Below are positions 47,784 through 52,921 of a stretch of 64,000 nt of DNA, piece by piece. How positions within the stretch are numbered: the stretch's first letter is position 1; each line of letters opens with the position of its first letter. Both the position numbers and the translations under genes were made by a program. The DNA is from Promethearchaeota archaeon. Lineage in GTDB: Archaea > Asgardarchaeota > Lokiarchaeia > Sigyniarchaeales > SOKP01. A model generated the notes under the pieces. The model was not told the DNA's origin and did not search any database. It saw only the letters and a program-made list of their open reading frames with translations. The DNA is taken from assembly GCA_016839705.1 (NCBI GenBank), contig JAEOTR010000053.1, positions 1 through 64,000 of the forward strand, written 5' to 3'.

Positions 47784-48851
47784 ATGGAAGAGAAGATTAT
47801 AGCAGTTACAAGAGGAGATGGGGTAGGGCCCGAAGTTGTTGATGAAGGACTTAAAATTTTAAAATTAATAGCCAAATTCACTAATTTTGATTTTAAGTTT
47901 AAGGATGCACCCGCAGGGGGAGAAGTATATAAAAAATATGGTAATAATCTTCCTGAACGTTCTTTTGACATAATTAAAAGTGCTGATGCACTCATATTTG
48001 GAGCTGTTGGGCTTCCAGACCTTCCTCCGGGTGTTGCCGAAACAGCTATCCTCAGAATAAGGCAAGAATTAGATTTATATGTTAATTTAAGACCTATCAA
48101 ACTCTATGAACCATTAAGAGACAGATGTCCTCTTAAGGATGAATTTATTGGTAATGGTATTGATATCACCTTCGTTCGAGAAAACACTGAAGGTTTGTAT
48201 GCAAATATTGGAAATATTTCTGATGATAAAGCTGAAAATCTCATGATCTATACTAGAAAAGGATGTGAACGTATCATCCGATATGCGTATGAATTTGCTA
48301 AAACAATGGGACATTCAAAAGTTACTTCAGTAGATAAGGCAAATATTCTAAAACCAAGTCAATTATGGCGTAAAATATTTCACGAAATAGGCATAGAGTA
48401 TCCAAATCTTCAAAAGGAAGATTTTTATATTGATGCCTTCTGTCAATGGTTAATTAGAGAACCTGATAAGTTTCAAACTGTCGTAACGGGCAATATGTTT
48501 GGAGATATAATAAGTGATGAAGGTGCCTTTCTTATTGGAAGTTTAGGAATGGCATCGAGTGGAAATATTCATCCTGGAAAAATATCTATGTATGAACCGA
48601 TACATGGCTCTGCCCCAGATATCTCAGGTAAGGGAATAGCAAATCCTATTGGAGCTATTCTTAGTGTCAAACTAATGATGCAAGAATCATTTCAATCTCC
48701 TGCTATTGCAAAAGAAATTGAATTATCCGTTGAGGAGTCCCTTAAAGAAGGCAGGACCATTGATCTTCAAAATCCTGATATTAAAAACCTCACAACAAAA
48801 GAGATGGGAGATTTAATAGCAGAAAAATTAAAATTAAGATTAAAAACATAA
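47784..48851 (+). CDS. leuB: 3-isopropylmalate dehydrogenase (beta-decarboxylating dehydrogenase family)
   Basis: GDGVGPEV, NLRP, RENTEGLY, VDKAN, NMFGDIISD, YEPIHGSAPDI. Substrate specificity not certain. Confidence 0.8.
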   Translation: MEEKIIAVTRGDGVGPEVVDEGLKILKLIAKFTNFDFKFKDAPAGGEVYKKYGNNLPERSFDIIKSADALIFGAVGLPDLPPGVAETAILRIRQELDLYVNLRPIKLYEPLRDRCPLKDEFIGNGIDITFVRENTEGLYANIGNISDDKAENLMIYTRKGCERIIRYAYEFAKTMGHSKVTSVDKANILKPSQLWRKIFHEIGIEYPNLQKEDFYIDAFCQWLIREPDKFQTVVTGNMFGDIISDEGAFLIGSLGMASSGNIHPGKISMYEPIHGSAPDISGKGIANPIGAILSVKLMMQESFQSPAIAKEIELSVEESLKEGRTIDLQNPDIKNLTTKEMGDLIAEKLKLRLKT

Positions 48852-48862
48852 ATCTGAATATT

Positions 48863-50422
48863 TTAATATTTATCATCAATAACGGAGAGCATTGACTCTA
48901 ACTGATCGAATATATCTAAACGAAAAGCTGTTCCGATTCTAAAGAAGAAGAGATCAATTGTTCTATTCTCAAGTTGATCATCCACGTTCAATTCCTCTAA
49001 TATTTGAGACCAACTCGTACTTTCTGTTGCTCTTATTCCAATTAATACAACTCCCTTATCTTTAGAGTTTTCAATGATTTTAATAATAATCTCTTTCCAT
49101 TGGGGGTCAACATGTTCTTTGTCTCTTGCATCAAAGATACAAAATACTCCATCAGAACTCGAGACATCGTCAGCTGCAGAATAAACATGCTGTTTTGTAA
49201 TTAGACCATTTGGATATTGGTAAACTTGTTCATCCTCATAATCTCTTACTAATGTTTGATCTCCTAATTTCTTTATATCACCAATAATTTGAAGTCCTGG
49301 ACTCCACATTGTGTTATCTGCAACAAACGAAAGGGTAAAGACAATTTTTTTCTTTATAATAGAGGATATTTTTTCATATAATAGTTCACTGCGTCTTTCA
49401 TCTTCGATTTCTTTGCTCTTCATTACGTAATGAAATGAAATCAAATTGAAAGCATCCTCTATATTCTCTCCGGTCAATGCGCTTGTTTCGATATAAGATA
49501 ACTTTATTATTTCTTTGTCAGATATTTTATTTGCTTGCTTTACTCCTTCTTGATAAAAGACTTGCCGTTCTTCACTCAAGTCTGATTTATTGCCAACTAA
49601 TACAATGGGGATTTCCTCATCGGTTGTAAACTCCTTTAGTTCGCGGTACCAGTTCAATACGTTATTAAATGACTCGCGCTTTGATAGATCAAAAACAATA
49701 AATGCTGCTTGAGCCCCTGAATAATAGACTTTTCGAAAACGACGAAAAAACTTTTGAGCTCCCAAGTCATATAATGTTACACCAATTTCGTTCCCAAAAA
49801 ATTCAAAGTTGTGAGTTAAAATATTAAGCCCTATAGTTGCCCTGTAATCTTCTGAAAACTTTTTTTCGACAAACCTACGAATAATAGAAGTTTTTCCAAC
49901 TTCATGATCACCCAAAATAACGAATTTAAAACGGTATTCCCCTTTAGTTGTTAAATCCATTTGATATAGTTGATTTTTCAACCGATCCACATTTTCTACC
50001 TCAAATTCGAAATTAGGGACGGATAATTGGATCAAATCGCCTTCTTCAGCTGATAAAATCTGAGCAGTTTTCTCGGCGAGAAATAATCCATAAGGGGAGA
50101 GTTTCTCAGGTGAAGCCATATGGTTTAATACTAAACTTAAGATGCGCTCTTCGTCAACTGATATAAACAATAAACGGTGATCTTCTGTATCAAAACTGGT
50201 ATTCCCAAATTTTTTGAATGAAAATTCGTTTCTCATTCTCTCCAAAACAGGATTTACAATAGAAGTTAAGACAGAAACAAGTTCGATGTCAACGTCTTTC
50301 CTCTTCTCACCTGCAATTATAAGACCTTCACTGTCTGAAACAATGACAGCTTCAACCTCCATATTAATCTCCAGAAACTTATTAAACAATTCAGTAAAAA
50401 ATTTATTTTTTCTTAAGACCAA
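48863..50422 (-). CDS. Roadblock + Rab-like small GTPase + degenerate GTPase-like domain (paralog B)
   Basis: N-terminal VEAVIVSDSEGLIIA; G1 GDHEVGKTS, G2 ATIG, G3 DLGAQ, G4 NKSD, G5 TSAL. Confidence 0.88.
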   Translation of the reverse strand: MVLRKNKFFTELFNKFLEINMEVEAVIVSDSEGLIIAGEKRKDVDIELVSVLTSIVNPVLERMRNEFSFKKFGNTSFDTEDHRLLFISVDEERILSLVLNHMASPEKLSPYGLFLAEKTAQILSAEEGDLIQLSVPNFEFEVENVDRLKNQLYQMDLTTKGEYRFKFVILGDHEVGKTSIIRRFVEKKFSEDYRATIGLNILTHNFEFFGNEIGVTLYDLGAQKFFRRFRKVYYSGAQAAFIVFDLSKRESFNNVLNWYRELKEFTTDEEIPIVLVGNKSDLSEERQVFYQEGVKQANKISDKEIIKLSYIETSALTGENIEDAFNLISFHYVMKSKEIEDERRSELLYEKISSIIKKKIVFTLSFVADNTMWSPGLQIIGDIKKLGDQTLVRDYEDEQVYQYPNGLITKQHVYSAADDVSSSDGVFCIFDARDKEHVDPQWKEIIIKIIENSKDKGVVLIGIRATESTSWSQILEELNVDDQLENRTIDLFFFRIGTAFRLDIFDQLESMLSVIDDKY

Positions 50423-50570
50423 GTATCCTTTACCCCAATTATTTATATCTATATTATGAATTTACTTACTATTATTTGTTGTTGTTATTAAATTATAAAA
50501 CATATTTAACTAGTTAATGAACTCTCAAAAAATTATTCCTATAGAAGTACAGTAAACTAAGATATTCGAG

Positions 50571-52157
50571 CTATAGATATCTTATTGTATTTAACATAAC
50601 CTTGAGCTGATCATAAATTTCCAATCTATATTCAACCCCTAATTTGAAAAACAATAAAGATATCATTTTCTCTTCTAATAATTCATTTACGTCAAATTCT
50701 TCCATTATCAGAGACCAATCACTTTCATCAGAGACGCGAATGCCAATTAATACTACTTTATTTTCTTTCATCTCATTTATGGTTTTTATAACAACATCTC
50801 GCCATGCTGGATCGACATGATCCTTATAACGAGCATCAAAGATACAAAACACGCCGTCAGCATCAGACACTTCAAAATTGTGATAAAGATAATTTTTTAG
50901 AGTAACCCCATTTGAAAATCTGTATAATTTCTCGTCTCTCTCATCTTTAAGTTTCTTACAATCTTCTAAACCGTTGATCTCAGCCAAAATCTGTAGTCCA
51001 GGACTCCAAAATTCATTTTCAGAGATTATTGTTAAAGTTAAAAGAGTATCCATAGGTACACCGATTATTTTCTTTTCCTTCAAGATATTATTTAACTCGT
51101 TCACTAAATCCTGTTTGACAATCTCTTCCTCTTCCTCTTTACTTTTCGATATATAGTGATATGCAATTAAAGTAAACGCGTCCTCAACATTTTCACCTGT
51201 TAGCGCACTCGTTTCAATATAGGATATTGCTATGTTTGGCTTATTCAGTAATTCATTTACTACTTGTACACCATCTTCATAACTAACTTCTCTCTGATCT
51301 CGTAGATCACTTTTATTTCCAATGATAATTATTGGTATTTCTCTTCCCCCAATAAAATCCTCTAATTCTTTATACCATTCTTTTAAACTTTCAAAAGATT
51401 TTCTATTCGTGAGATCAAATACTATAAATGCTGCTTGTGCACCTAAGTAATAGGTTTGTCGAAATCTTCGGAAAAATGTTTGAGCCCCAACATCCCACAG
51501 ACTATAGACGATATTATTGCCATAAAAGTCATAAGAATGACTTAGAATATTTAATCCTATTGTTGCACGATAGTCGTGAGAAAATCTATTTTCTACAAAT
51601 CGTCTAACTAGACTTGTTTTTCCTACTTCATGATCGCCTATTATTATAAATTTGAATCGATATAACCCTCCCTGATCTAATCGCAATTGATATATTTGGT
51701 TTTTTACTCTTTCATTGTAAGCGGTTTCATCTGTTTCATACTCAAAATTAGGAATATTTAGCTGAATACTATCACCTTCTTCAGCATTTAAAATTTGTAC
51801 TGATTTTTCTGCGAGTAAATATGCATAAGGAGATGCTTTATCAACTGATGCTAAATTATTTAGTACAAGGCTCAAAGTTCTACTTTCATCTAAAGAAATA
51901 AATAACAGTCTATAAAATTCTGTATCAAAGCTAGCTGTTCCAAATTTTTTGAAAGCAAACTCATCACGTATCCTTTCTACGATTGGATTTATTATTGATG
52001 TTAAGACTGAGACAATTTCTATATCCACGTCACTTCTTTTTTCACCTGCTATGACTAAACCAAGCCGATCACTCACGATCACCGCCTCTACATCGTCATT
52101 TATTAGCAAAAATTGATTAAAAAGTTCCGTGAAGAGTTTAGTTCGATTTATCAACAA
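50571..52157 (-). CDS. Roadblock + Rab-like small GTPase + degenerate GTPase-like domain (paralog A)
   Basis: VEAVIVSDRLGLVIA; GDHEVGKTS, ATIG, DVGAQ, NKSD, TSAL; colinear with 48863..50422. Confidence 0.88.
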   Translation of the reverse strand: MLINRTKLFTELFNQFLLINDDVEAVIVSDRLGLVIAGEKRSDVDIEIVSVLTSIINPIVERIRDEFAFKKFGTASFDTEFYRLLFISLDESRTLSLVLNNLASVDKASPYAYLLAEKSVQILNAEEGDSIQLNIPNFEYETDETAYNERVKNQIYQLRLDQGGLYRFKFIIIGDHEVGKTSLVRRFVENRFSHDYRATIGLNILSHSYDFYGNNIVYSLWDVGAQTFFRRFRQTYYLGAQAAFIVFDLTNRKSFESLKEWYKELEDFIGGREIPIIIIGNKSDLRDQREVSYEDGVQVVNELLNKPNIAISYIETSALTGENVEDAFTLIAYHYISKSKEEEEEIVKQDLVNELNNILKEKKIIGVPMDTLLTLTIISENEFWSPGLQILAEINGLEDCKKLKDERDEKLYRFSNGVTLKNYLYHNFEVSDADGVFCIFDARYKDHVDPAWRDVVIKTINEMKENKVVLIGIRVSDESDWSLIMEEFDVNELLEEKMISLLFFKLGVEYRLEIYDQLKVMLNTIRYL

Positions 52158-52339: not shown

Positions 52340-52921
52340 ATGCCTACTTGCATTGTTTGTCATTTAGAGATAGAAGAAAATCCAAACACTCTTTTCAAGT
52401 GCACTAATGAACATCCAATTCACAGGAAATGCTTAGCTGAATGGTTATTGCATTCACAAAATTGTCCATTATGTACTGAACCCTATTCGCAGAATGTTCT
52501 CAATCAGTTTGAAGATGAGCTTGAACAAAAAGAGCAAGAAAAGCAGGCTGCGATAGACGCTGAAAAAAAGAAAGAGGATTTTAGAAAAGTTGAAGAATTA
52601 GCAAATAGAATTATTTTCTTAAAAGAAATTGAAGAAATTGAACAATTAATTGATGATAACCAATATGAGGACGCAATAGAAAAACTCTTAGTATTATATA
52701 ATGAAGGCTCTTATGATGTAAACGACCAAAAGGTGCTGTTTCTTTTAGGAAAAGCGAATTTTTTGAAAGGACGATTTGACCTTACGATAAATTTCTTATT
52801 CAAACTCGTTAAGCTTAATTTTGAGTATCCTGATGGATTCTTATACCTTGGAAAAGCCTATGAAAAGCTTGGATTGCCCGATAAAGCGAAATGGGCTTTT
52901 GATAGAGCTAAAATAGAATAG
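52340..52921 (+). CDS. RING-H2 finger + coiled coil + TPR protein (putative E3 ligase)
   Basis: C-x2-C-x11-C-x3-H-x2-H-x2-C...W...CPLC; TPR-like LFLLGKANF and FLYLGKAYEKLG. Confidence 0.85.
   Translation: MPTCIVCHLEIEENPNTLFKCTNEHPIHRKCLAEWLLHSQNCPLCTEPYSQNVLNQFEDELEQKEQEKQAAIDAEKKKEDFRKVEELANRIIFLKEIEEIEQLIDDNQYEDAIEKLLVLYNEGSYDVNDQKVLFLLGKANFLKGRFDLTINFLFKLVKLNFEYPDGFLYLGKAYEKLGLPDKAKWAFDRAKIE

Follow-up and report, generated by a model that had tools for sequence, protein, structure and literature searches.

Two adjacent genes of a lokiarchaeial genome (Promethearchaeota archaeon, assembly GCA_016839705.1, contig JAEOTR010000053.1, positions 1 to 64,000; this stretch of 64,000 nucleotides is the window referred to below) raise the question of what a GTPase domain may be kept for once its nucleotide-binding motifs have gone. 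Their products, here called paralog 1 and paralog 2, each consist of an N-terminal roadblock-like domain, a Rab-like G domain and a third, C-terminal domain, and it is this third domain that concerns us. A first-pass annotation, made from the sequence alone, had taken it for a degenerate second G domain. The best overall explanation, to which we give a probability of about 0.6, is that it is a class-i pseudoGTPase fused from the Arf side of the small GTPases, serving as a docking module that is moved by the switch upstream of it.

The two proteins are 58% identical, and the length of paralog 1 is typical of most of its close homologs. The first G domain is readily recognised, both by Pfam (Ras, E 3e-42) and, in a fold search with a two-domain model, by its likeness to Rab8a (TM score 0.92-0.95). 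The roadblock N-terminus gives a weak Pfam match (Robl_LC7, PF03259, E 0.016) that falls short of the cut-off; the protein as a whole fits the Asgard roadblock-fused Rab-like GTPases. A Pfam scan of the isolated third domain and 31 homologs matched no family.

The fold of this domain was addressed by prediction. An AlphaFold2 (AF2) model from a 40-row alignment has a predicted local distance difference test score (pLDDT) of 93.6 and a predicted TM score (pTM) of 0.89, with its elements in the order beta1-alpha1-(switch-I strand)-beta2-beta3-beta4-alpha3-beta5-alpha4-beta6-alpha5. Foldseek matched the model to 378 PDB chains at E<=0.001, with probability 1.00, and the best 50 of the 378 are GTPase domains, nearly all of them small GTPases. 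[quoted passage not shown] Residues L348, I355, N405, G406, L508 and I515, at helix, switch-I and interswitch elements, are conserved at 90% or more. Sequence homology to small GTPases is weak and confined to beta4-alpha5: a profile of the third domain, run against all PDB sequences, found Rnd1/Rho6 at E 5.8e-5, aligned at beta4-alpha3-beta5, and a narrower profile found Rnd1 at E 0.002. The former alignment recovers the beta4 and beta5 register first read from the blocks DGVFCIFDAR and VVLIGIR, which, like WSPGL, lie where they had been reported and are identical in both paralogs.

Among small GTPases the model resembles the Arf family most closely. An unbiased VIA search across 48,161 chains placed HodArfR1-GDP first (Z 14.0, root-mean-square deviation (rmsd) 3.2, 156 residues aligned), followed by Arf-family and Rag-like proteins, while the best Rab reached only Z 9.9. 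When structural matches were rescored, the best 50 were all Arf, Arl or Sar with GDP forms leading (HodArfR1-GDP, Z 14.3, rmsd 3.2, 159 aligned; yeast Arl1, 13.6; Arf1-GDP, 13.2), and GerdArfR1 scored 13.0 in its GDP form against 11.4 in its GTP form. Residues 1-170 of the model align to residues 5-184 of Arf-GDP, with a strand at 41-46 and with the predicted N-terminal helix on that of Arf; Arf chains aligned without this helix still score Z 11.4-12.2. [quoted passage not shown] In the third domain the residues at these three elements, helix, interswitch tip and C-terminal helix (L348, I355, N405, G406, L508 and I515), are at least 90% conserved. The same VIA search also returned non-GTPase sandwiches at Z 9-10.6, among them TIR (10.3) and receiver domains (9.0-9.4), as would be expected if the third domain were not derived from a G domain at all and were a flavodoxin/CheY- or TIR-like alpha/beta sandwich resembling one. 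Those alignments, however, cover only 111-125 residues, as against 150-159 for Arf, the sequence profiles match GTPases in register, and language-model features place the domain near CENP-M (0.89), Ras and Arf clusters, this last as a lead only. The sandwich reading is thus already largely refuted, and we regard it as extremely improbable.

The motif census covered 231 full-length homologs, all distinct. Every one of them (231/231) retains GxxxxGK[ST], the Thr of G2, NKxD and SA in its first G domain. In the third domain Walker A and NKxD are found in none of the 231 and DxxG in one; the G4 position reads GIRx and the G5 position F[RK]IG. The P-loop retains its length of eight residues, xDxxxWSP in place of GDHEVGKT, with Trp for Gly in 220 of the 231, Ser or Asn for Lys, and Pro for Thr without exception (231/231); we infer the register from this length and from the divergent homolog P0144, which keeps IVGD. 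Members of the large family have only a few residues left of switch II, and divergent members have a longer one. Because the wDxGGQ signature of switch II is absent from the third domains of the 231 homologs, we do not class the domain with the Arf proteins but call it Arf-shaped, with a probable origin on the Arf side. A GTPase fold without G motifs is what defines a pseudoGTPase (PMC5593906), and the predicted fold and the motif loss together support placing the domain in class i. The degenerate G domain of the first-pass annotation, with its WSPGL P-loop and missing NKxD, is therefore borne out by fold prediction, structure search, profile matches and loss of G1-G5 in 231/231. By analogy with p190 pG1 and AAGAB, the domain probably no longer binds guanine nucleotide; the nucleotide-free interaction module of the first-pass annotation is a reasonable proposal in view of such class-i pseudoGTPases.

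The former nucleotide face still carries conserved residues, W373, P375, Q378, R433, R464 and R501, and both paralogs are without a C-terminal Cys motif, so the remodelled pocket might bind a small ligand (unhydrolysed GTP, another nucleotide or a phospholipid head group) and act as a sensor, or as a membrane anchor in place of a prenylation site. The Gly, Lys and Thr of the P-loop, the G3 Asp, the G4 Asn and Asp and the G5 Ser-Ala are nevertheless all lost, a Pro at the helix start and a Trp at the Gly position would be expected to remove backbone amides and crowd the site, and p190 pG1 and AAGAB, with similar losses, bind no nucleotide. On balance a ligand pocket seems quite unlikely.

That the domain is kept by selection had been concluded at first from conserved blocks shared by the paralogs. 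This part of the argument needs a different footing, because conservation between paralogs is lowest here (46% identity, against 63% for the G domain and 71% for the roadblock), and it is better based on the ratio of nonsynonymous to synonymous substitution rates (dN/dS). By the Nei-Gojobori method, over 44 disjoint ortholog pairs, the median is 0.11 for the third domain, and 0.066 and 0.054 for the other two. Selection itself stands: these values support the view that the third domain is kept as a folded protein by purifying selection.

Where the domain came from is less plain. The first-pass annotation had proposed an internal duplication, and several things would agree with an ancient copy, now decayed, of the Rab-like domain beside it: the position itself, the retained P-loop length together with the IVGD of the divergent homolog, which resembles the ILGD of the first domain, a match of 52-70% from a broad profile of Rab-like paralogs, and the presence of other tandem Rab-like G domains in the genome. 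BLASTP of the third against the first domain, however, found nothing significant, and in hhalign the protein's own G domain matched at 0.1-5% and the roadblock-Rab domains of the sister family at 0.1-8%, near the background scores of reversed-alignment controls. A hidden Markov model (HMM) search of the phylum with the third domain picked out, in another Asgard family and at E 5e-5 to 5e-4, an Arf-like family (named ADP-ribosylation-factor-like by NCBI, from Heimdallarchaeaceae and Hodarchaeales), to which hhalign gave 92% and E 5e-7. Scored in turn on the 231 third domains, the HMM of this Heimdall/Hod family had a median of 16.8 bits, Rab-like paralogs 8.8, the own G domain 3.0, the sister-family roadblock-Rab domains 2.1 and reversed controls 0.1-2.2. 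Structure search likewise sends the two domains to different subfamilies, the first to Rab8a and the third to Arf/Arl/Sar. There is no support for a recent internal duplication, since the domain next door is among the poorest profile matches, and an ancient one is unlikely; structure, together with mixed profile scores, makes an Arf-side small GTPase the likelier donor. The 1.5 kb on either side of the sister family's roadblock-GTPase genes contain no intact Arf gene, and no fusion precursor has thus been found.

The third domain is present in 124 of 134 genomes of the window's family, including 37/37 of those with high completeness, and in 1/1 and 4/4 genomes of two other families of the order. 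It is found in none of 14 genomes of the fourth, sister family, in which a more divergent profile finds none either, and which includes single-contig genomes of 4.4 and 6.0 Mb, all without it; the roadblock-Rab-like relatives there have frames of 320-400 aa that end after the G domain. No third domain was found in the other Asgard families sampled, save on one contig outside the order (genome G073) that is probably misbinned (4.3 kb, 81% identical to paralog 1, in a bin with 9% contamination); because of such probable misbinning, NCBI labels (Thor, Hod and Odin, for example) on close matches were not used for distribution. As kin are not independent, these counts amount to one or a few events. 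Genomes carry 1-5 paralogs, and two copies lie within 4 kb of each other at 50 of 75 loci of the large family. The small families have one match per genome, which suggests that the third domain arose before the tandem pair. When homologs of the divergent member P0148 were searched for, only P0148 itself was found. Among the matches searched there was no stand-alone third domain, the two short ones that were checked being fragments at contig edges, and an apparent 962-aa fusion of both paralogs (L107:1619-4504) is an artefact of a scaffold gap (a run of N). Some paralogs, of about 895 aa, run past the pseudo-G domain (P0129; L180:2644-4260, minus strand); since the extension of P0129 is a coiled coil with TPR-like repeats, the domain does not stand at the end of every such protein.

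Both class-i pseudoGTPases and tandem-G proteins have been described before. The former include pG1 and pG2 of p190RhoGAP (PMC5593906), the pseudo-G domain of AAGAB (PMC12490416) and CENP-M (PMC10211241), which share with the third domain a small-GTPase fold and the degradation of all five G motifs; p190 is further alike in carrying another G domain, of low identity, in the same multidomain protein. None of the three is among the best 50 structural matches, and all differ in being eukaryotic and experimentally nucleotide-free, while the domain described here is archaeal, apparently Arf-GDP-shaped, placed after a roadblock-Rab module, and known from sequence and model. In EhRabX3, the tandem-G Rab of Entamoeba histolytica, one G domain is short of several G motifs (PMC5593906). 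There too a G domain is followed in one chain by a motif-poor one, although homology is not implied. EhRabX3 is not known to have a roadblock domain. Among the matches listed in the two-domain fold search there were single Rab domains only, with neither a tandem-G structure nor EhRabX3. Asgard small GTPases fused to roadblock or longin domains have been published (Tran et al. 2024, PMC10933270; RasL group, bioRxiv 10.1101/2024.02.28.582541), and adjacent paralog pairs have been proposed to heterodimerise through their roadblock domains, with a prediction for a Rag-like pair (PMC10933270). The present proteins resemble these in their N-terminal roadblock, their Rab-like G domain and their adjacent paralogs, and depart from the fusions of Tran et al. 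2024 (PMC10933270) in the pseudo or tandem G domain, which is absent from that paper's text. In the model the third domain matches Arf-GDP and ArfR1-GDP (PDB 8OUL, 8OUN, 1HUR) over its whole length, N-terminal helix and switch-I strand included, but unlike Arf it has no P-loop, wDxGGQ or NKxD, and the large family has lost almost all of switch II; its N-terminal helix, moreover, would be the end of a covalent linker rather than a free membrane-binding helix.

How such a protein might work is suggested by a two-domain AF2 model (pTM 0.76), in which an unbroken 38-residue helix (H162-199) joins the G domains; the pTM weakly suggests a preferred orientation of the two. In the proposed history, a second, Arf-side small GTPase would have been fused onto a roadblock-Rab-like protein in the ancestor of the large Lokiarchaeia family and the two small ones. 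The third domain would then have become frozen in the GDP, or off, shape of Arf, with switch I as an extra strand and with the end of the linker helix occupying the docking site of Arf's amphipathic N-terminal helix; held in these two ways, the interswitch would be unable to toggle. The roadblock domain, judging from its family, would dimerise the protein, the first G domain would bind GTP and GDP as the sole switch, and the stiff helix would carry the pseudo-G domain, an unchanging surface for docking whose placement would follow the state of the switch. In AAGAB the pseudo-G domain uses two loops, beta2-beta3 and beta6-alpha5, to hold an AP sigma subunit (PMC12490416). The same loops are conserved here (G406 99%, N405 91%, G497 90%), with paralog-specific residues nearby (R495/K, D503/E, S513/N), and a docking role, suggested by this analogy, is somewhat favoured. 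Lever-like coupling between switch and third domain is more tentative, and so is the full picture of an archaeal Rab-Arf hybrid, in which a dead Arf-side GTPase, locked GDP-shaped by the linker helix, would be repositioned by the nucleotide state of the Rab-like switch. A complex prediction (pseudo-G domain of paralog 1, full paralog 2 and roadblock of paralog 1) scored 0.00 and is uninformative both ways.

The first G domain has His and Glu at the positions of Ras residues 12 and 13 and, at the position of Ras G60A, Ala for Gly in G3; its switching may be slowed or otherwise changed. DxGA is found in 220/231 homologs, the most divergent members keeping DxGG. As the G60A change shifts H-Ras towards its inactive state 1 and impairs hydrolysis (PMC4867591), a built-in helper is plausible, and the third domain could be an intramolecular regulator (a lid, or an element like a guanine-nucleotide dissociation inhibitor or exchange factor) that offsets the G3 change, as in tandem-G proteins of the EhRabX3 kind, and has no outside partner. 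Its never being found alone, and the suggested relative orientation, would suit this. A long helix, though, tends to keep two domains apart, and the most divergent members combine DxGG with the same third domain, which must then predate the G3 change, so that we think such a regulator improbable.

Several points tell against an Arf-side docking module. No part of the protein is less conserved than the third domain, and the sister family does without it. [quoted passage not shown] The best PDB sequence match is Rnd1, of the Rho family. The score of the Heimdall/Hod Arf-like family is inflated, because that family was chosen as the best scorer in a genome search, and two independent Arf-like sets from Lokiarchaeia score 5.6 and 2.2 bits, below the 8.8 of Rab-like paralogs; for both reasons the sequence case is mixed. 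Lastly, W373, R433, R464 and R501 lie at strand ends of the nucleotide face, where a small anionic ligand would also fit.

The features of the locus are collected in the table.

Features of the two paralogs, in coordinates of the window
Feature	Position	Strand	Remarks
Paralog 1 gene	48863..50422	-	519 aa, TTG start; roadblock, then Rab-like (RasL-type) GTPase, then pseudo-G domain
Paralog 2 gene	50571..52157	-	528 aa; architecture as paralog 1; upstream of paralog 1, gap 148 bp
Pseudo-G domain, paralog 1	48866..49342	-	Residues 361-519; predicted fold of a small GTPase, nearest to Arf-GDP; residues of G1-G5 lost
Pseudo-G domain, paralog 2	50574..51044	-	Residues 372-528; 46% identical to paralog 1 copy
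Rab-like G domain, paralog 1	49424..49933	-	G1, G2, G4, G5 intact; G3 = DxGAQ at 49754-49768
Rab-like G domain, paralog 2	51150..51662	-	G3 = DVGAQ at 51480-51494
Roadblock-like domain (N-terminal), paralog 1	50048..50422	-	Weak Pfam Robl_LC7 match; homologous to N-termini of other roadblock-GTPases
Roadblock-like domain (N-terminal), paralog 2	about 51783-52157	-	
Predicted continuous 38-residue helix, paralog 1	49349..49462	-	alpha5 of first G domain to N-terminal helix of pseudo-G domain
Remodelled P-loop, paralog 1	49292..49321	-	xDxxxWSP replacing GxxxxGKT
WSPGL	49292-49306 (paralog 1); 50994-51008 (paralog 2)	-	
beta4 block DGVFCIFDAR	49124..49153 (paralog 1); 50829-50858 (paralog 2)	-	
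beta5 block VVLIGIR	49031..49051 (paralog 1); 50736-50756 (paralog 2)	-	GIR replaces GNK; G4 Asn and Asp lost

Divergent from the GTPase pair lies a gene for a RING-finger and TPR protein (52340-52921, plus strand; Pfam zf-RING_2, E 6.5e-7), a possible E3 ligase. An isocitrate/isopropylmalate dehydrogenase-like gene (47784-48851, plus strand) is convergent with paralog 1 across a gap of 11 bp, and the same neighbour, likewise convergent, is present at locus L066. A scan for sigma-70 promoters and terminators gave background levels only, sigma-70 models being ill-suited to archaea. Elsewhere in the genome, which totals 3.36 Mb, two further three-part paralogs are found on contigs C32 and C86, and, judging by sequence, degenerate G domains recur. 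One 659-aa open reading frame (C53:343-2319, minus strand) has a CDC48-N-like start and then two Rab-like domains whose P-loops are both non-canonical, and is thus another tandem-G protein of the genome; a 698-aa frame (C29:23115-25208, minus strand) encodes a longin-G-roadblock-G protein; and C32:20159-21226 (minus strand) encodes a G-like domain without recognisable G motifs. Proteins of a related family carry a tandem of two intact Arf-like G domains, with a helical region after each (L156:1249-2862 and L166:1240-2871, both minus strand).

PseudoGTPase domains have so far been described from eukaryotes, with a few bacterial cases, and our literature search, outside which Klinger et al. 2016 falls, found no paper on an Asgard or archaeal one. 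Since the domain is confined to part of one order, and searches of other Asgard groups did not find it, it has little direct bearing on the eukaryotic ancestor. Its function we can only infer, but if the Rab-Arf hybrid is real, no pseudoGTPase would have been characterised in archaea before it, and the eukaryotic practice of reusing dead G domains as scaffolds would have arisen independently in Asgard archaea. Hidden from Pfam, yet near-universal in the largest family of Lokiarchaeia sampled, the third domain is an overlooked class to be added when Asgard small GTPases are counted; and, being small and apparently well folded enough to express, it allows the conversion of a G domain from switch to scaffold to be tested directly.

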